Source: Escherichia coli
GTDB taxonomy: Bacteria; Pseudomonadota; Gammaproteobacteria; Enterobacterales; Enterobacteriaceae
Strand: one strand, 5' to 3'
Length of the DNA: 64,000 nt
Assembly: GCF_050320075.1 (NCBI RefSeq)
Contig: NZ_CP190018.1
How positions within the stretch are numbered: the stretch's first letter is position 1; every line of letters begins with the position of its first letter. A model generated the notes under the pieces. That model was not told the origin of the DNA. It searched no databases and worked only from the letters and a program-made list of their open reading frames with translations. Shown piece by piece: positions 801-59,977 of this stretch. The translations under genes were made by a program, and so were the position numbers.

Positions 801-1044
801 TTTCCGCGTCATGCTTCACGCCGCAGATGCGTTGGCTGCGCTCGTTCACCCCAGTCACATAGTTATCTATGCTCCTGGGGCTTCACTCACTTGCCGCGTG
901 ATTCGGCCTTTTGGCCTCACCCCTTTGGGGCCAGCGCAAGCGCTGTTCAAAACGCAATGCGTTTTGTCCTGCAACGCGAATCATTTAGCGGAAAAATCCT
1001 GGGGCTGCCAACTGGCGGCCCTTTTACAAAGAAGGATAACTAAA

Positions 1045-2420: not shown

Positions 2421-2446
2421 CGAACGTTGAATGAATTGTGGTTCTT

Positions 2447-3223
2447 ATGTCCGAAACAAAAAACGAACTTGAAGATCTGCTGGAAAAAGCAGCAACCGAA
2501 CCGGCGCACCGCCCGGCCTTTTTCCGTACTCTACTGGAATCCACCGTCTGGGTGCCGGGTACGGCGGCGCAGGGCGAGGCTGTGGTTGAAGATAGCGCGC
2601 TTGATTTACAGCACTGGGAAAAAGAAGACGGCACCAGCGTCATTCCTTTTTTTACCTCGTTAGAAGCACTTCAACAGGCGGTTGAAGACGAACAGGCATT
2701 TGTCGTAATGCCCGTTCGCACATTGTTTGAGATGACCCTTGGCGAAACGCTCTTCCTTAATGCCAAACTGCCAACCGGTAAAGAATTTATGCCGCGTGAA
2801 ATCAGTTTGTTGATTGGTGAAGAAGGAAATCCGCTGAGCAGCCAGGAAGTACTGGAGGGCGGTGAATCGCTGATATTATCGGAAGTCGCAGAGCCGCCAG
2901 CACAAATGATTGATTCACTCACCACCTTATTTAAAACTATTAAGCCGGTGAAGCGTGCTTTTATTTGTTCAATTAAAGAGAACGAAGAGGCACAGCCTAA
3001 TTTACTTATTGGCATTGAAGCCGATGGTGATATCGAAGAAATTATTCAGGCGGCGGGAAGTGTAGCGACCGATACATTACCTGGCGATGAACCCATCGAT
3101 ATTTGTCAGGTGAAAAAAGGGGAAAAAGGAATTAGCCACTTTATTACCGAACATATTGTGCCATTCTATGAACGTCGCTGGGGTGGTTTTTTGCGTGACT
3201 TTAAACAGAACCGGATAATCTAA
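2447..3223 (+). CDS. sseB: SseB protein (enhances serine sensitivity)
   Basis: ORF 2438-3223; ATG at 2447 gives 258 aa beginning MSETKNELEDLLEKAA; synteny next to pepB and sseA. Confidence 0.85.
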   Translation: MSETKNELEDLLEKAATEPAHRPAFFRTLLESTVWVPGTAAQGEAVVEDSALDLQHWEKEDGTSVIPFFTSLEALQQAVEDEQAFVVMPVRTLFEMTLGETLFLNAKLPTGKEFMPREISLLIGEEGNPLSSQEVLEGGESLILSEVAEPPAQMIDSLTTLFKTIKPVKRAFICSIKENEEAQPNLLIGIEADGDIEEIIQAAGSVATDTLPGDEPIDICQVKKGEKGISHFITEHIVPFYERRWGGFLRDFKQNRII

Positions 3224-3299
3224 AATATGCCGCCCTAAAGGGCGGCATTCGGGCTTACTTGCTGCTCTGAAGGTTGTTAACCACCAGTAAATTGTTGCC

Positions 3300-3660
3300 G
3301 GAGAGACTCCGGTTATTATTTACCTCGGTTAACAGCGCACCAGAAACAATAAGTACGATACAAAAGCACCGTATCTTCATTGTGCGGTCCATGCGAAGAC
3401 CGCATCACGACAGCACCACTGGCGATATTGCCGCGATAGCAAGCACTGTGGGGTGTCTGCATTTACGGTCATGGAACATCCTTTCCTAAAGCCAGCGCCC
3501 GTTTGCGAGACGGCGAAAAGGGCCGTCACGAATAATACTCTCATGTTTGAATAATTACTCTGTTTATTATCTTGACATAGCCAGGCATAAAAGAGAGTAT
3601 TTCAACACTGTGGGGTGCCTGCGTTGCTCCAGCAACACAAGTCAACCAGCTGGAAAGGCC
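3300..3660. ncRNA. candidate small RNA locus in the sseB-sseA intergenic region (ryfA-like position); strand and ends uncertain
   Basis: 500-bp non-coding gap with a TTGACA box near 3572, an internal 18-bp repeat (about 3445 and 3606) and a flanking bidirectional terminator; ryfA is recalled to lie between sseA and sseB in K-12. Confidence 0.3.
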
Positions 3661-3667
3661 GCGAACC

Positions 3668-3708
3668 AGACCAGCAATAAAAAACCGCCAAATTCGGCGG
3701 TTTTTTAT
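3668..3708. terminator. bidirectional intrinsic terminator downstream of sseA
   Basis: Hairpin aaccgccaaattcggcggtt flanked by an A-run on one side and a T-run on the other. Confidence 0.6.
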
Positions 3709-3722
3709 TGCCTGTAAAAAGC

Positions 3723-4568
3723 TTATTTCAATGGCTCAACCGGTAAATCTGCCCGTGCGCCCCATTCACTCCATGCGCCGTCGTACAGTTTCACGTTTGG
3801 CACATCCAGCGTCGCGAGTGCCAACAAAACCACGGCTGCCGTTACACCAGAACCGCAACTGACGATAATAGGTTTGTCATAACTTACGCCGCGACCAAAA
3901 AATATCGCATCCAGTTCATCGGTCGTTTTTAGTTCGCCTTCACGTACCAGTTCTGTCCACGGAACGTTAAACGCGCCGGGAATATGTCCGCGACGTAAAC
4001 CTGGGCGAGGTTCATCAACTTCTGCGTTAAAACGTGCAGCCGGGCGGGCATCAATAATTTGCGCCGTATTTTCATGGCTTGCCAATAACACATCGGTGAC
4101 TTTCACCACGGCTTCAGGATTAAACGTGGCGTTAAACTCTCCTTCCGGCAGCTCTACTGCACCTTCTTCTAACAGCAGATCATCGCGCTGCCAGCCTGCA
4201 AGTCCACCCCCCAGAATCGACACTTTCTCTACACCAAAGGTGCGCAGCATCCACCATGCTCGTGGGGCTGAGAAAAGATTACCTTCGTCATAGACAATCA
4301 GGTGCTTATCCTGGTTAACGCCTAACTCACGCATCGCCACGGCGAACGTTTCCGGGCGCGGCAGCATGTGCGGAAGCGGGGAAGTGTGATCAGAAAGCGC
4401 TTCGATATCAAAAAACACTGCGCCGGGAATATGTCCATTCAGATACTCCTGAGCAACGTTACGATCTTCCTGTCCAGGCGACGCCATGCGGGCATCGATA
4501 ATCTGAATTTCCGGGTCATCAATATGTTCGGCGAGCCAGTCGGCTCCTACAAACCATGTCGTGGACAT
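3723..4568 (-). CDS. sseA: 3-mercaptopyruvate sulfurtransferase (rhodanese family)
   Basis: ORF 3723-4727 on minus strand; start placed at the ATG giving MSTTWFVGADW (281 aa); tandem rhodanese domains with active-site CGSGVTA. Confidence 0.9.
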   Translation of the reverse strand: MSTTWFVGADWLAEHIDDPEIQIIDARMASPGQEDRNVAQEYLNGHIPGAVFFDIEALSDHTSPLPHMLPRPETFAVAMRELGVNQDKHLIVYDEGNLFSAPRAWWMLRTFGVEKVSILGGGLAGWQRDDLLLEEGAVELPEGEFNATFNPEAVVKVTDVLLASHENTAQIIDARPAARFNAEVDEPRPGLRRGHIPGAFNVPWTELVREGELKTTDELDAIFFGRGVSYDKPIIVSCGSGVTAAVVLLALATLDVPNVKLYDGAWSEWGARADLPVEPLK

Positions 4569-7700: not shown

Positions 7701-9736
7701 CGCTCAACGAACAGGGCGAAGGCTCGGTTACACTGCCGATTGGCGATTTTAACGGTGAACTACGCGTCATGGCGCAAGCCTGGACGGCAGATGACTTCGG
7801 TAGCAACGAAAGCAAAGTGATAGTTGCCGCACCGGTGATTGCTGAACTGAACATGCCGCGCTTTATGGCGAGTGGCGATACCTCGCGTCTGACGCTGGAT
7901 ATCACTAATCTTACCGATAAACCGCAAAAACTGAACGTTGCCCTGACCGCCAGTGGTTTGCTTGAACTGGTCAGCGTTTCACCCGCAGCCGTTGAATTAG
8001 CGCCAGGTGTGCGTACTACGCTGTTTATCCCGGTGCGAGCATTGCCGGGTTATGGCGATGGAGAAATTCAGGCCACCATTAGCGGGTTAGCGTTACCGGG
8101 TGAAACCGTTGCCGATCAGCATAAGCAGTGGAAAATCGGCGTCCGTCCGGCGTTCCCGGCACAAACGGTTAATTACGGTACGGCGTTGCAGCCTGGTGAG
8201 ACATGGGCGATTCCGGCGGATGGATTGCAAAACTTCTCGCCTGTTACACTGGAAGGGCAATTGTTGTTGAGCGGCAAACCACCGCTGAACATCGCACGTT
8301 ATATCAAAGAGTTAAAAGCGTATCCGTACGGCTGTCTTGAGCAAACCGCCAGCGGCTTGTTCCCGTCACTTTATACCAACGCAGCCCAACTGCAGGCGTT
8401 GGGCATCAAAGGCGACAGTGATGAGAAACGCCGTGCATCGGTCGATATCGGCGTTTCCCGTTTGCTGCAAATGCAACGTGATAACGGCGGCTTTGCGCTG
8501 TGGGATAAAAACGGTGACGAAGAGTACTGGCTGACGGCTTACGTGATGGATTTCCTGGTCCGCGCAGGTGAGCAGGGGTACAGCGTGCCGACAGACGTCA
8601 TTAACCGGGGAAATGAGCGTCTGCTGCGCTATTTACAAGATCCGGGCATGATGTCGATCCCGTACGCGGATAATCTCAAAGCCAGTAAATTCGCCGTACA
8701 GTCTTACGCTGCGCTGGTGCTGGCCCGTCAGCAAAAAGCACCACTGGGTGCGCTGCGTGAAATCTGGGAGCATCGTGCAGATGCCGCTTCTGGTTTACCG
8801 CTGCTGCAACTTGGCGTTGCGCTGAAAACCATGGGTGATGCGACGCGTGGTGAAGAAGCAATTGCGTTGGCGCTGAAAACGCCGCGTAATAGTGATGAGC
8901 GGATATGGCTGGGTGATTACGGTAGTCCACTGCGCGACAACGCGTTGATGCTCTCCTTGCTGGAAGAAAATAAACTGCTACCCGATGAGCAGAACACTTT
9001 GCTGAACACGCTTTCGCAGCAGGCATTTGGTGAACGCTGGCTATCGACCCAGGAAAGTAACGCGTTGTTCCTGGCTGCCCGTACAATTCAGGATTTACCG
9101 GGTAAATGGCAGGCGCAAACCTCTTTCTCAGCTGAGCCGCTGACAGGCGAGAAAACGCTAAACAGCAATCTGAATAGCGATCAACTTGCCACCTTGCAGG
9201 TGACCAACAGTGGCGATCAGCCGTTATGGCTGCGTGTGGATGCCAGCGGTTATCCGCAATCCGCACCTTTACCGGCGAACAATGTGCTGCAAATCGAGCG
9301 TCATATTCTTGGTACTGATGGTCAGAGTAAATCGCTGGACTCGTTACGTAGCGGCGATCTGGTGCTGGTCTGGTTGCAGGTAAAAGCCAGTAACAGCGTG
9401 CCGGATGCGTTAGTCGTGGATCTGCTGCCTGCGGGTCTGGAACTGGAAAACCAGAATCTGGCGAACGGTAGCGCCAGCCTGGAGCAAAGTGGTGGCGAAG
9501 TGCAGAACTTACTGAACCAGATGCAGCAGGCGAGCATTAAGCACATTGAGTTCCGTGATGATCGCTTTGTGGCGGCGGTTGCCGTTGATGAATACCAACC
9601 GGTAACGCTGGTGTATCTGGCGCGGGCGGTGACGCCGGGAACGTATCAGGTACCGCAACCGATGGTGGAATCAATGTATGTTCCCCAATGGCGGGCGACT
9701 GGCGCGGCTGAAGATCTGCTGATTGTCAGACCGTAA
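4775..9736 (+). CDS. yfhM: alpha-2-macroglobulin family lipoprotein
   Basis: 1653-aa ORF with lipoprotein signal and lipobox LALAGC; size and position upstream of pbpC as in E. coli. Confidence 0.9.
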   Translation: MKKLRVAACMLMLALAGCDNNDNAPTAVKKDAPSEVTKAASSENVSSAKLSAPERQKLAQQSAGKALTLLDLSEVQLDGAATLVLTFSIPLDPDQDFSRVIHVVDKKSGKVDGAWELSDNLKELRLRHLEPKRDLIVTIGKEVKALNNATFSKDYEKTITTRDIQPSVGFASRGSLLPGKVIEGLPVMALNVNNVDVNFFRVKPESLPAFISQWEYRNSLANWQSEKLLQMADLVYTGRFDLNPARNTREKLLLPLGDIKPLQQAGVYLAVMNQAGRYDYSNPATLFTLSDIGVSAHRYHNRLDIFTQSLENGAAQQGIQVSLLNEKGQTLTQATSDAQGHVQLENDKNAALLLARKDGQTTLLDLKLPALDLAEFNIAGAPGYSKQFFMFGPRDLYRPGETVILNGLLRDADGKALPDQPIKLDVIKPDGQVLRSVVSQPENGLYHFTWPLDSNAATGMWHIRANTGDNQYRMWDFHVEDFMPERMALNLTGEKTPLTPKDEVRFSVVGYYLYGAPANGNTLQGQLFLRPLREAVSALPGFEFGDIAAENLSRTLDEVQLTLDDKGRGEVSTESQWKETHSPLQVIFQGSLLESGGRPVTRRAEQAIWPADALPGIRPQFASKSVYDYRTDSTVKQPIVDEGSNAAFDIVYSDAQGVKKAVSGLQVRLIRERRDYYWNWSEDEGWQSQFDQKDLIENEQTLDLKADETGKVSFPVEWGAYRLEVKAPNEAVSSVRFWAGYSWQDNSDGSGAVRPDRVTLKLDKASYRPGDTIKLHIAAPTAGKGYAMVESSEGPLWWQEIDVPAQGLDLTIPVDKTWNRHDLYLSTLVVRPGDKSRSATPKRAVGVLHLPLGDENRRLDLALETPTKMRPNQPLTVKIKASNKNGEMPKQVNVLVSAVDSGVLNITDYVTPDPWQAFFGQKRYGADIYDIYGQVIEGQGRLAALRFGGDGDELKRGGKPPVNHVNIVAQQALPVTLNEQGEGSVTLPIGDFNGELRVMAQAWTADDFGSNESKVIVAAPVIAELNMPRFMASGDTSRLTLDITNLTDKPQKLNVALTASGLLELVSVSPAAVELAPGVRTTLFIPVRALPGYGDGEIQATISGLALPGETVADQHKQWKIGVRPAFPAQTVNYGTALQPGETWAIPADGLQNFSPVTLEGQLLLSGKPPLNIARYIKELKAYPYGCLEQTASGLFPSLYTNAAQLQALGIKGDSDEKRRASVDIGVSRLLQMQRDNGGFALWDKNGDEEYWLTAYVMDFLVRAGEQGYSVPTDVINRGNERLLRYLQDPGMMSIPYADNLKASKFAVQSYAALVLARQQKAPLGALREIWEHRADAASGLPLLQLGVALKTMGDATRGEEAIALALKTPRNSDERIWLGDYGSPLRDNALMLSLLEENKLLPDEQNTLLNTLSQQAFGERWLSTQESNALFLAARTIQDLPGKWQAQTSFSAEPLTGEKTLNSNLNSDQLATLQVTNSGDQPLWLRVDASGYPQSAPLPANNVLQIERHILGTDGQSKSLDSLRSGDLVLVWLQVKASNSVPDALVVDLLPAGLELENQNLANGSASLEQSGGEVQNLLNQMQQASIKHIEFRDDRFVAAVAVDEYQPVTLVYLARAVTPGTYQVPQPMVESMYVPQWRATGAAEDLLIVRP

Positions 9737-15257: not shown

Positions 15258-16376
15258 ATGCATAACCAGGCTCCAATTCAACGTAGAAAATCAACACGTA
15301 TTTACGTTGGGAATGTGCCGATTGGCGATGGTGCTCCCATCGCCGTACAGTCCATGACCAATACGCGTACGACAGACGTCGAAGCAACGGTCAATCAAAT
15401 CAAGGCGTTGGAACGTGTTGGCGCTGATATCGTCCGTGTCTCAGTACCGACGATGGACGCGGCAGAAGCGTTCAAACTCATCAAACAGCAGGTTAACGTG
15501 CCGCTGGTGGCTGACATCCACTTCGACTATCGCATTGCGCTGAAAGTAGCGGAATACGGCGTCGATTGTCTGCGTATTAACCCTGGCAATATCGGTAATG
15601 AAGAGCGTATTCGCATGGTGGTTGACTGTGCGCGCGATAAAAACATTCCGATCCGTATTGGCGTTAACGCCGGATCGCTGGAAAAAGATCTGCAAGAAAA
15701 GTATGGCGAACCGACGCCGCAGGCGTTGCTGGAATCCGCCATGCGTCATGTTGATCATCTCGATCGCTTGAACTTCGAACAGTTCAAAGTCAGCGTGAAA
15801 GCGTCAGACGTCTTCCTCGCTGTTGAGTCTTATCGTTTGCTGGCAAAACAGATCGATCAGCCGCTGCATCTGGGGATCACCGAAGCGGGTGGTGCGCGCA
15901 GCGGGGCGGTTAAATCCGCCATTGGTTTAGGTCTGCTGCTGTCTGAAGGCATTGGCGACACGCTGCGCGTATCGCTGGCGGCCGATCCGGTTGAAGAGAT
16001 CAAAGTCGGTTTCGATATTTTGAAATCGCTGCGTATCCGTTCGCGCGGGATCAACTTCATCGCCTGTCCAACCTGTTCGCGTCAGGAGTTTGATGTTATC
16101 GGTACGGTTAACGCGCTGGAGCAACGCCTGGAAGATATCATCACTCCGATGGACGTTTCGATTATCGGCTGTGTGGTGAATGGCCCAGGTGAGGCGCTGG
16201 TTTCTACACTCGGCGTCACCGGCGGTAACAAGAAAAGCGGCCTCTATGAAGATGGCGTGCGCAAAGACCGTCTGGACAACAACGATATGATCGACCAGCT
16301 GGAAGCGCGCATTCGTGCGAAAGCCAGTCAGCTGGACGAAGCGCGTCGAATTGACGTTCAGCAGGTTGAAAAATAA
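15258..16376 (+). CDS. ispG: 4-hydroxy-3-methylbut-2-enyl diphosphate synthase
   Basis: 372-aa [26 protein letters not shown]...; C-terminal Fe-S cysteines CPTCSR. Confidence 0.95.
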
Positions 16377-16486
16377 TAACGTGATGGGAAGCGCCTCGCT
16401 TCCCGTGTATGATTGAACCCGCATGGCTCCCGAAACATTGAGGGAAGCGTTGAGGGTTCATTTTTATATTCAGAAAGAGAATAAAC

Positions 16487-40847: not shown

Positions 40848-40924
40848 TGGCGTGGCATGCAGGATTCGAACCTGCGACCAACCGCTTAGAAGGCGGTTGC
40901 TCTGTCCAACTGAGCTAATGCCAC
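40848..40924 (-). tRNA. tRNA-Arg (anticodon UCU), phage-encoded
   Basis: Manual cloverleaf: acceptor GTGGCAT/ATGCCAC, D-arm GCTC/GAGC, anticodon stem ACCGC/GCGGT, loop CTTCTAA (UCU), T-arm GCAGG-TTCGAAT-CCTGC, discriminator G, CCA encoded; closely resembles host argU. Confidence 0.85.
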
Positions 40925-54542: not shown

Positions 54543-57091
54543 TGGCAGCAAACGAATTTTTGACGCAGTGCGAGCGCAGTGTAAATGCTGCCGCTGGTCG
54601 CGAGCTTTCTTCCGATGAGATGGAGTCGCTGGTGCGTGACATGAACGACACCACTAGGCGAATTCTGGCGACCAATGAGGCGCTGTCTCTGGAAGAGGCC
54701 GCGATGCGCGCAGCGGAAGAACTGAGCAATGCCGATATGCTGGCAAAACAGATTGAGTCCCGCAATAAGGCAATCAACACCCGTATTGCCGCACAACGAC
54801 TTAGAGAGCTTCGTACTATCTGGAAAGACCGCCCGGATATCGGGCTTGAAGCAATGCTGGTTGGCCGCAACGATGCGCGTACCGGCGCCCGCCGGTCGGT
54901 ATCTTCGGAGGTGGCGCAACTGCGCGGCAAGTATCATTCCGGTATCAACTACGATTTTGACCGTGCCGGGCTGGTGCAATTCATCGCCAGCGGCAGCAAT
55001 GACAGGGAAATTGCCGATGCAATGTGGCGCATAGGGCGCGGGCAGTCAACTGACGGTATGACAAGGCAATCCGTAAGCGCTGCACAAATCATCATGAAAT
55101 GGCAGGAAACTGCGCACATTGATGAGAACCGCGCCGGGGCATGGATACGCAAAGAGCCGGGCTATATAGTGCGCCAGTCACACGACATCATGAAGATCCG
55201 CGCCGCAGGTTATGAAGCATGGCGAAATGCTATTCTCCCGCGCCTTGATGAGCGCACTTTTGACGGCGTGGCTGACCGCGAGCAGTTCATGCGTAACATT
55301 TATAACGGGCTGGCTTCCGGCGTGCATCTTACATCTGAAAAGCCCGATTGGATGAATGGCTTTAAGGGATCGGCGAACGCAGCTAAACGCGCCAGCCAAG
55401 AGCGAATTTTGCACTTCAAAGATGGTATCTCGTGGCACGAGTACAACCAGCAATTCGGCACCGGCAGCCTGCGAGAGGCGCTGTTTGGTGGCTTAAACAG
55501 CGCTGCCCGCACAACGGGCATGATGCGCGTACTGGGCACTAACCCACAGAACATGTTTAAGTACCTGACGGACACCATTGCTGAAGATATCAGCAAATCC
55601 GGAAGACCGGCAGCGTTGGCTGACTACATGACGAAGGTGCGTCGCATTAACCGTACCGTAATGCCGCAGGTTGACGGCTCGCTAAATATTCCTGGCAGCG
55701 TAGGCTGGGCCAATGCGTCGGCGGCTGTACGCGGCTGGTTGCGTATGAGCCAGCTTGGTGGCGCGGTAATCTCATCGTTTAACGACGTGCCTATCGCCGC
55801 TACCGAGATGCGCTACCAAGGGCAGAATTTTATGCAGGCGTTGCTTGGTGCTATGAGAGGCCGCTTCACGCGTTACAACAGCGCGGAGCAGAAAGAGATC
55901 CTTTCCTCTATCGGAGTTTATTCCGACTCCATGACGCAGGAAATCATCCGGCGTATATCTGGTGATGACACGCTGAATGGAAAACTTGGTCGCGCGCAGC
56001 AGCTTTTCTTTAAGTACAACCTCATGAACTTCTGGACCGAGAGCGGTCGCAACAGCAACGCCATGATGATAACCAACTGGCTTGCAAAGAATGCTGACCA
56101 GCCTCATGCGCGGCTACCGGAAGACCTGCGACGCGTGCTGGATCTGCACGGTATTGGCGAACGTGAGTGGGAAATTTTTCGCAACATGGACATGGCCGAT
56201 AGCGAAGGTCGTAAGTTCATGACGACCAGCGGCATCCGCGGCGTGCCTGACGAAGTGATTGCCGGTTATGTAGAGAGTAAGGGGATCAAGCCAACGCAGC
56301 GCGCTATCGCTGACGCACGCGATCAATTGGAAGGGCAGTTGCGCGGCTACATCCTTGACCGCCTGAATATCGCCATGTCAGAGCCTGGCGATCGCACGCA
56401 GGCGTTTATGAAGATGGGCACGGTGCCAGGAACGGTGGCTGGGGAAGCAATACGATTCGCTGGTCAGTACAAATCGTTCACTGCAAGCTTCATGCAGAAC
56501 GTACTAGGACGCGAAGTATTCGGGCGTGGTTATATTCCTGCTGGGCTTGGTGAGTCGAAAACCGGATCGCTGACGAATGCTCTGCTGCGTAACGGGAAGG
56601 GGGCTTTCCTTGGTGCTGCAAACCTCTTTGTCTGGGCGACTATGTTTGGTTATATCTCCATGCAGTCAAAACTCATGCTGAAAGGGCAAACACCACGCCC
56701 GGCAGATGCCAAGACGTTTCTCGCAGCCGCATCTCAGGGGGGCGGTCTTGGCATCTTGGGTGACTTCATGTTTGGCGAGGTCAACCGCATGGGGGCCGGG
56801 CCGGTTACGTCGCTAATGGGACCGGCAGCATCGAACGCTGACAGCATTATCACGCTGCTCCAGCAGACCACGAGAGGGGATGCAGATTTGGGTGACTGGT
56901 ATCGCACGGCACTTGACAATACGCCATTCCTCAACGTGTTCTGGCTTCGTACGGCGATGAATGGTTTAATATTGAACCGGATACAAGATGCCCTTGACCC
57001 AGGCTCTCTTGAGCGTTATCAGCGCCGTGTTGAGCGTGAGCAGGGTAACGAATTTCTGATCCCACCATCGCAGTTCATGCTAGGGAAGTAA
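54542..57091 (+). CDS. internal virion/ejection protein (large)
   Basis: ORF 54539-57091; ATG 54542 overlaps the upstream stop. Confidence 0.45.
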   Translation: MAANEFLTQCERSVNAAAGRELSSDEMESLVRDMNDTTRRILATNEALSLEEAAMRAAEELSNADMLAKQIESRNKAINTRIAAQRLRELRTIWKDRPDIGLEAMLVGRNDARTGARRSVSSEVAQLRGKYHSGINYDFDRAGLVQFIASGSNDREIADAMWRIGRGQSTDGMTRQSVSAAQIIMKWQETAHIDENRAGAWIRKEPGYIVRQSHDIMKIRAAGYEAWRNAILPRLDERTFDGVADREQFMRNIYNGLASGVHLTSEKPDWMNGFKGSANAAKRASQERILHFKDGISWHEYNQQFGTGSLREALFGGLNSAARTTGMMRVLGTNPQNMFKYLTDTIAEDISKSGRPAALADYMTKVRRINRTVMPQVDGSLNIPGSVGWANASAAVRGWLRMSQLGGAVISSFNDVPIAATEMRYQGQNFMQALLGAMRGRFTRYNSAEQKEILSSIGVYSDSMTQEIIRRISGDDTLNGKLGRAQQLFFKYNLMNFWTESGRNSNAMMITNWLAKNADQPHARLPEDLRRVLDLHGIGEREWEIFRNMDMADSEGRKFMTTSGIRGVPDEVIAGYVESKGIKPTQRAIADARDQLEGQLRGYILDRLNIAMSEPGDRTQAFMKMGTVPGTVAGEAIRFAGQYKSFTASFMQNVLGREVFGRGYIPAGLGESKTGSLTNALLRNGKGAFLGAANLFVWATMFGYISMQSKLMLKGQTPRPADAKTFLAAASQGGGLGILGDFMFGEVNRMGAGPVTSLMGPAASNADSIITLLQQTTRGDADLGDWYRTALDNTPFLNVFWLRTAMNGLILNRIQDALDPGSLERYQRRVEREQGNEFLIPPSQFMLGK

Positions 57092-59664: not shown

Positions 59665-59817
59665 AGTGATCACCTTTGTAGTTAGGTTAATCACCACTAC
59701 CGACGCCAATCGGTTGGTGGTGAACTGTGCAGGGTTGGCGTAACCGGCTACAAAGGACCCGGCGCACCTTTCGGTGCCCCCACACAGCCCACCATAGAAT
59801 AGGTGCGCTTTACACAT

Positions 59818-59838
59818 AAAAAAAACCGCTTATGCGGC
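59818..59838 (-). terminator. intrinsic terminator after the 90-aa gene
   Basis: Hairpin ccgcataagcgg followed on the minus strand by eight U. Confidence 0.5.
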
Positions 59839-59977
59839 ATATGTGCCTCTGTAGTAACTCGGGACGCCAATCCCGGCACTGGATTTTGCCAGTGCCCGAT
59901 TACTATGGCACAAGAGGAGTGCGTTGTAAATTTACCGCAAAGGTAAATATAAGCACTCCACTTGGCAATTGCAAACC

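Follow-up and report, generated by a model that had tools for sequence, protein, structure and literature searches.

The closest described relatives of the locus analysed here are found in Salmonella and Shigella. The RNA known as ryfA is the messenger of timP, the toxin gene in a type I toxin-antitoxin system (PMC7667032). In Salmonella, TimP is toxic and localises to the membrane, and its repression by the small RNA TimR is backed by compensatory mutants; membrane damage and repression of translation by TimR have been shown in Salmonella only (PMC7667032). The 5' end of TimR (STnc2070; RyfB1 in Shigella) base-pairs over ~18 nt with the timP 5'UTR, and translation is blocked (PMC7667032). [quoted passage not shown] Both the binding of TimR to SL2 (PMC7667032, PMC11228461) and the function of the SL1-SL3 pseudoknot (PMC11228461) were demonstrated experimentally in Salmonella; the pseudoknot, the structural switch and the role of SL4 are described in PMC11228461 and PMC13000454.

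In Shigella dysenteriae, ryfA1 and ryfA2 form a tandem pair and RyfB1 specifically lowers RyfA1; Fris et al. read RyfA1 and RyfB1 as non-coding regulators (Fris 2017, PMC5333039). RNAs of ~100 nt corresponding to TimR have been detected in Shigella, Salmonella, UPEC and APEC, and Northern or RNA-seq evidence for both RNAs is available from Salmonella, S. dysenteriae, CFT073 and CH138 (PMC5333039, PMC7667032, PMC13188913). ProQ binding to RyfA has been reported in APEC. The type I toxin-antitoxin pairs zorO-orzO, shoB-ohsC and tisB-istR1 of E. coli have no sequence homology to timPR but share its layout, with divergent adjacent promoters, non-overlapping RNAs and ~18-20 nt of complementarity in a long toxin 5'UTR; their toxins are also small hydrophobic membrane peptides. 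These pairs require nucleolytic processing of the toxin mRNA, whereas timP is reported to be a purely structural switch (PMC11228461, PMC13000454).

The window examined here is a 64,000-nucleotide stretch of E. coli DNA. Its sseB-sseA intergenic space spans 3224-3722 (499 bp between large ORFs), as sseB (2438-3223, plus strand; Pfam SseB and SseB_C) ends at 3223 and the stop codon of sseA (minus strand; Rhodanese) lies at 3723. Further out, pepB is upstream and yfhM downstream of the sseB-gap-sseA block. The E. coli locus lies directly between sseB and sseA; Salmonella, in contrast, has STM2534 in between. This space very probably contains the timPR (ryfA/ryfB1) locus of E. coli, a type I toxin-antitoxin system of enterobacteria which would work as it does in Salmonella; we assign this reading a probability of roughly 93%. 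Its direct basis is the families to which the RNA and the ORF belong, the geometry of the locus, the covarying complementarity, and the conservation of promoter, terminator and pseudoknot; every sequence-level defining feature of timPR is present. Transcription, toxicity and the repression mechanism we infer from the Salmonella and Shigella work. The timPR locus is already known and well characterised, and no new sRNA is described here. It is present in 5425 of 5426 complete E. coli genomes.

The timP mRNA, formerly 'RyfA sRNA', is ~305 nt long from its 5' end to its terminator and occupies 3526 to 3222 on the minus strand. The match to Rfam ryfA (RF00126) is full length (model positions 1-296 of 296) and scores 319.9 bits (E = 1e-89). 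The first-pass annotation had pointed to a ryfA-type RNA between sseA and sseB in K-12 and had proposed an Rfam search; the suggestion was correct, and the search returned a match well over the gathering score of 80. That annotation had also described the gap as 470 bp of non-coding DNA at 3253-3722. There is indeed a gap, but it is the longer one given above, since a start at 3253 cuts away the timP terminator at 3227-3248; nor is it non-coding, because the timP ORF lies inside it.

This ORF (3380 to 3255, minus strand) has 41 codons and a stop (MKIRCFCIVLIVSGALLTEVNNNRSLSGNNLLVVNNLQSSK) and begins at +147 of the mRNA, after a leader of 146 nt. Its product matches the NCBIfam profile NF040796, toxic_TimP, at 86.8 bits (cutoff 45) over 40 of 40 profile positions, and identical DNA in RefSeq E. 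coli genomes is annotated timP, 'small toxic inner membrane protein TimP'. Its hydrophobic part is the N-terminal half, with a Kyte-Doolittle hydropathy of +1.76 for residues 1-20 compared to -0.78 for residues 21-41. The locus thus belongs to the same RNA family (ryfA) and protein family (TimP) as timP-TimR of Salmonella enterica SL1344 (Andresen 2020; Eleftheraki 2024, 2026); the protein has 41 residues here and 38 in Salmonella, and the C-terminal half is divergent. Another in-frame AUG at 3392 (minus strand), four codons 5' of the TimP start and within the SL4 loop, would give a 45-aa form (MDRTMKIRC…), which is the form predicted for CFT073. Rahnella and Erwinia lack this upstream AUG, as they have AAGGA where AUGGA stands here; the conserved timP start is therefore the AUG at 3380.

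The timP mRNA ends in an intrinsic terminator (3227-3248, minus strand), found both by a terminator scan and as an inverted repeat, which has 9 pairs (7 of them G-C) followed by a T-rich tail and is the last helix of the Rfam ryfA model. The hairpin is 4 nt past the sseB stop codon and probably serves sseB too, on the plus strand.

Relatives of the locus were collected by scanning species-representative genomes with a pattern taken from SL4. Among the 120 matches listed, in which chance matches in GC-rich genomes dominate and Salmonella does not appear, 14 are from Enterobacterales (Escherichia, Citrobacter, Superficieibacter, Yersinia, Rahnella and Erwinia); all 14 score above the gathering score for ryfA. 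Three E. coli alleles, from K-12, A26 and EDL933, were added to the comparison. All 18 loci compared have an intact timP ORF of 38-41 codons, with a conserved hydrophobic N-terminus and indels in multiples of three. It starts between +147 and +149 in 17 of these loci and at +123 of a truncated RNA in the remaining one, a deletion derivative from C. amalonaticus. Between genera, dN/dS is mostly 0.10-0.29, rising to 0.72 in comparisons with Superficieibacter; inside Escherichia it is ~1, a value that comes from a handful of changes and is uninformative on coding constraint because there are too few substitutions.

E. coli RyfA might instead be mainly a regulatory RNA which acts independently of any peptide on stress resistance, fimbriae, motility and virulence, with TimR as its RNA partner or sponge. 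In CFT073 (UPEC), a ryfA deletion is complemented by ryfA alleles whose ORF has been disrupted (PMC8205139). Deletion of ryfA attenuates APEC, and a timR deletion and the ryfA-timR double deletion are almost without phenotype (PMC13188913). Fris et al. found no RyfA1 peptide in Shigella (PMC5333039), a TimP peptide has not been demonstrated in E. coli itself in the literature, and the dN/dS within Escherichia is uninformative. Against this, the ORF is in frame throughout six genera at the low between-genera dN/dS given above, the match to the TimP profile is strong, and the leader features that control translation (the SD in SL4 and the pseudoknot) are conserved; Salmonella timP is moreover toxic from the E. 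coli chromosome (FASTBAC-Seq design, PMC13000454). A mainly regulatory RNA is rather unlikely, and the cross-genus conservation of the ORF and of its translation control argues that the TimP peptide is under selection as well. The two roles are compatible, and ryfA could be a dual-function RNA.

The leader shares its architecture with that of Salmonella: in both, the four stem-loops SL1-SL4 precede an ORF that starts at about +145/+147, SL4 contains the SD, and SL1 and SL3 are joined by a 7-bp pseudoknot. SL1 (mRNA nt 7-46; 3481-3520, minus strand) follows the Rfam consensus structure, and the first pseudoknot arm is its upper loop at nt 30-36 (3491-3497). SL3 (nt 90-123; 3404-3437, minus strand) contains the other arm: CGCUGGC at nt 30-36 pairs over 7 bp with GCCAGUG at nt 104-110 (3417-3423). 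In an alignment of 15 sequences the pseudoknot is 100% paired, with compensatory changes in 3 of its 7 pairs, and helices 1 and 2 of the leader are 97-100% paired. SL4 (nt 124-143; 3384-3403, minus strand) has 7 of 7 pairs invariant, which is partly by construction because SL4 supplied the search pattern. The SD sequence GGA (nt 137-139; 3388-3390) is part of the 3' arm of SL4 and precedes the AUG at 3380 by 7 nt. For all six leader helices, including the pseudoknot, 96.7% of the cells in the 15-sequence alignment pair (90-100% per helix).

On the opposite strand, the antitoxin gene timR (the RyfB1/STnc2070 homologue) is placed at 3607-3706, from the start predicted by its promoter to the end of its terminator. 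The putative TimR of ~100 nt folds into a free 5' seed, hairpin 1 (3623-3636), hairpin 2 (3649-3675) and a terminator (3679-3706), at -35.5 kcal/mol (z = -2.5). Hairpin 1 and the terminator show compensatory changes among 13 homologues; hairpin 2 (GCUGGAAAGGCCGC…CCAGC) is sequence-invariant among them. The divergent sRNA of ~100 nt, the complementarity of its 5' end to SL2 over ~18-20 nt, and intrinsic terminators on both RNAs are further features in common with Salmonella.

Hairpin 2 and its loop (GCUGGAAAGGCCGCGAACCAGACCAGC) are almost invariant in sequence over the six genera, unlike the seed and hairpin 1. The hairpin contains GGAAAGG, which is identical to the 3' arm of the lower stem of timP SL1 and consequently complementary to timP nt 6-12. 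Hairpin 2 may make a second contact or bind a protein.

The two genes diverge from an 80-bp promoter region (3527-3606), and from its sequence we infer transcription start sites at ~3607 for timR and 3526 for timP. The timR promoter (plus strand) consists of the -35 box TTGACA (3572-3577), a 17-nt spacer and the -10 box GAGTAT (3595-3600); the near-consensus -35 box noted earlier is thus an exact TTGACA. The arrangement TTGAC(A), 17-nt spacer, nAnTAT is kept in 17 of 17 loci, with TTGAC invariant, while the flanks diverge. For timP (minus strand), the -10 box is TATTAT (3537-3532), and no convincing -35 box was seen by eye. A generic promoter scan called neither promoter; for timR this is explained by its -10 box, which fits only 3 of 6 consensus positions. 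The -10 regions of timR (3593-3601) and timP (3534-3542) are inverted copies of one another, each reading GAGAGTATT on its own transcribed strand, so that the divergent promoters are near mirror images.

The strong bidirectional terminator reported by the first-pass annotation is present at 3674-3711, where it ends timR on the plus strand and sseA on the minus strand. It was recognised as an inverted repeat and by its fold: the 19-nt arms (3674-3692 and 3693-3711) are 95% complementary and lie between an A-run and a T-run, and the fold is an 11-bp hairpin followed by U6. The candidate small RNA proposed for the gap corresponds to TimR, since TTGACA, the second repeat copy and this terminator belong to the plus-strand gene; as a description of ryfA the term does not hold, because ryfA is the mRNA of TimP. 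TimR has no Rfam family; consequently, the lack of an Rfam hit could not count against a plus-strand sRNA.

Several names and matches for the plus-strand RNA were rejected. The Rfam families sraL (33.7 against a gathering score of 39) and IS128 (25-27 against 80) align mainly to the terminator hairpin, and the sub-threshold matches to the rimP leader, the Leu leader and RNAI rest on the same hairpin. A second near-match to the TimR body motif at 54820 lies inside an 850-codon ORF and is due to chance. The name 'ryfB' of the older K-12 literature belongs to a different gene; we take it to be the shoB mRNA and not Shigella RyfB1/TimR.

The two repeat copies that had been noted about 160 bp apart are CACTGTGGGGTGTCTGCATT at 3444-3463 and CACTGTGGGGTGCCTGCGTT at 3606-3625. 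They are identical at 18 of 20 positions and are spaced 162 bp from start to start. Copy 1 read on the minus strand is the predicted TimR-binding site in SL2 (mRNA nt 64-83, AAUGCAGACACCCCACAGUG), and copy 2 read on the plus strand is the predicted 5' seed of TimR (CACUGUGGGGUGCCUGCGUU); both assignments are based on complementarity and covariation. Seed and target pair at 19 of 20 positions (18 Watson-Crick pairs and one G·U), with one C·A mismatch, whereas 18 continuous pairs are formed in Salmonella, where the seed and target sequences differ from those here. Imperfect complementarity is also a feature of the Shigella pair (16 of 18). The predicted duplex has an energy of -33.2 kcal/mol, compared to -10.6 to -20.8 kcal/mol for the same timP target with seeds of other classes or genera; over all loci, cognate duplexes range from -30 to -39 kcal/mol and non-cognate ones mostly from -9 to -25 kcal/mol.

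Complements were searched for as ungapped 20-mers, together with 20-mer duplex energies; RNAduplex gave only meaningless global duplexes when the complete leader (150 nt) was run against 450 nt from upstream. The leader and the divergent upstream DNA have their best complementary 20-mers at the same two places in 14 of 15 loci: leader nt 63-85 and 64-100 nt upstream of the timP 5' end. These pair at 18-20 of 20 positions although the core sequence differs. When seeds and targets from the 15 loci (six genera) are aligned, 95.7% of cells pair, compared to 27-51% with the partner slid by 1-3 columns; these pairing counts are somewhat inflated, as the seeds were located via complementarity. Compensatory changes occur in 10 of the 20 pairs, and the observed covariation score was reached by 0 of 500 shuffles. 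Of the 33 non-Watson-Crick cells in the alignment, 20 are G·U wobbles.

The repeat could in principle be a chance match or a functionless leftover of local duplication, unrelated to TTGACA and the terminator: there are only two copies, short two-copy families are often due to chance, and tandem duplications of the timP locus do occur in E. coli (strain Tig207). This is extremely improbable. A degenerate 17-mer covering the repeat has exactly two occurrences in the 64 kb, where 0.04 are expected by chance, and two matches arose in 0 of 100 shuffles; furthermore, the copies change together between classes and genera, and their position is fixed relative to the conserved promoter and terminator. 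The other short repeats (D2-D4) were treated as chance. Direct repeats around a divergent promoter region can also serve as operators, and the copies might be two sites for a DNA-binding regulator of both promoters. Such a role is just as improbable, as copy 1 is inside the transcribed leader and copy 2 covers +1 to +20 of timR, so that neither spans a promoter; within a single species their sequence is hypervariable, and the locus has no gene for a partner regulator that varies with it. The G·U wobbles are sensible only at the RNA level, and the compensatory-mutant genetics in Salmonella show RNA-RNA pairing (PMC7667032).

The toxin-antitoxin reading gives the following mechanism, modelled on Salmonella. 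The divergent promoter region would produce two RNAs, the timP mRNA leftward (3526 to 3222) and TimR rightward (~3607 to 3706). The timP leader would fold into its four stem-loops, and the ORF would encode a hydrophobic inner-membrane toxin. With the SD locked in SL4, translation would depend on a long-range rearrangement as well as on the SL1-SL3 pseudoknot. TimR would pair through its first ~20 nt (copy 2) with SL2 in the leader (copy 1, opposite strand), and this pairing would destabilise the pseudoknot and thereby block translation. As copy 2 is the seed of TimR and copy 1 its target, the 'direct repeat' in the DNA would be the footprint of an RNA-RNA duplex.

The locus varies considerably within E. 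coli. When a 561-bp query was compared with 5425 E. coli genomes, 564 matched at at least 95% identity and 4819 at 80-90%. The low number of close matches is explained by the clustering of differences in SL2, the promoters, the TimR seed and hairpin 1 (~3445-3640); between E. coli alleles there are 0 differences in leader nt 90-146 and 1-6 in the timP CDS. Published types of the variable region include CCCCC, and RyfA1-like alleles read CACCC, CCCCC or CGCGT, not TGTTT (PMC5333039). The window and EDL933 have the RyfA1-like CACCC, A26 and E. whittamii have CGCGT, and K-12 has TGTTT. In the window, SL2 of the mRNA reads GCAGA-CACCC-CACAG, which places the allele in the RyfA1-like class; the CACCC variable region (mRNA GACACCCCAC) is shared with S. 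dysenteriae RyfA1, and the window has a single copy instead of the S. dysenteriae tandem pair.

An exact 40-mer of the window allele is found in 142 of 5426 E. coli genomes. The window differs from EDL933 at mRNA nt 71, where it has A (T at 3456) and EDL933 has G; this A forms an A·C in the SL2 stem as well as the C·A mismatch with TimR. The predicted stability of SL2 is -6.0 kcal/mol in the window and -9.2 kcal/mol in EDL933. The predicted net gain from dimer formation is ~-21 kcal/mol in both; repression is therefore predicted not to be lost in the window allele.

It is possible, although we lean somewhat against it, that the region running from SL2 across both promoters to the TimR seed (~3445-3640) is, in E. 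coli, a hypervariable specificity cassette in which near-orthogonal classes of seed and target (CACCC, CGCGT, TGTTT and the published CCCCC) are kept apart by selection against cross-talk, and that the mismatch in the window is compensated tuning of toxin repression. Selection against cross-talk is suggested by the tandem and chimeric loci, which combine two classes. The variable region and the specificity of RyfB1 are already published (Fris 2017), and the novelty of such a cassette would be limited to the population-level picture and its selective interpretation.

Loci of K-12 type (K-12 NCM3722, locus positions 301-1179, and one further locus) are ~320 bp longer and contain two timR genes. 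In NCM3722, the timR adjoining timP has a non-cognate, CGCGT-class seed (-23.7 kcal/mol with K-12 timP), while the distal timR is the cognate one (-34.1 kcal/mol); in front of it are the promoters and ~15-20 nt left over from a ryfA 5' end. The proximal K-12 timP resembles a chimera, in which an SL2 of the TGTTT class is combined with a 5' end and promoter like those of A26. Some 1,500 additional 'places' matched among the 5425 genomes suggest that the arrangement with two timR genes is common. In E. coli Tig207 (locus positions 574-1780), the whole unit is duplicated in tandem, together with 87 bp from the 3' end of sseB; the TGTTT class is found in unit 1 and the CACCC class in unit 2, and each timP adjoins its cognate timR. 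This is an S. dysenteriae-like 'sibling' arrangement in E. coli.

Disrupted loci were also observed. In Citrobacter amalonaticus (8069-8340), the DNA between the repeat copies, comprising SL1 and both promoters, is missing; as a result, the reverse complement of the TimR body is fused straight to timP SL2. This looks like a deletion via recombination between the direct repeats which left a promoterless remnant. E. coli strain 410 has an IS1 element within the timP locus; in E. coli P276M, timP is unannotated, the match is limited to query positions 160-561 and sseB is frameshifted. Both look like occasional natural disruptions of the locus.

Elsewhere in the window, Rfam matches above the gathering score were obtained for sroE (16376-16467, plus strand) and for a tRNA (40851-40924, minus strand). 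C4 antisense RNA adjoins isrK (59713-59799 and 59819-59895, minus strand), a pair typical of P4-like or prophage DNA. A match to 'AaHKsRNA22' (902-974, minus strand) is located inside or upstream of pepB and occurs in the equivalent place in E. whittamii too.

A repeat, a promoter and a terminator in a seemingly empty gap thus resolve, with high probability, into a textbook-style divergent type I toxin-antitoxin pair, in which pairing between the RNAs of two divergent genes shows up in the DNA as a direct repeat. The locus also exposes gaps in annotation, since TimR has no Rfam family and both promoters escape generic promoter scans. timPR is of current interest for its non-canonical control of translation through a pseudoknot switch. 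Whether E. coli RyfA is a toxin mRNA, a regulatory RNA or both is under debate. To either question the window adds no more than one documented allele.
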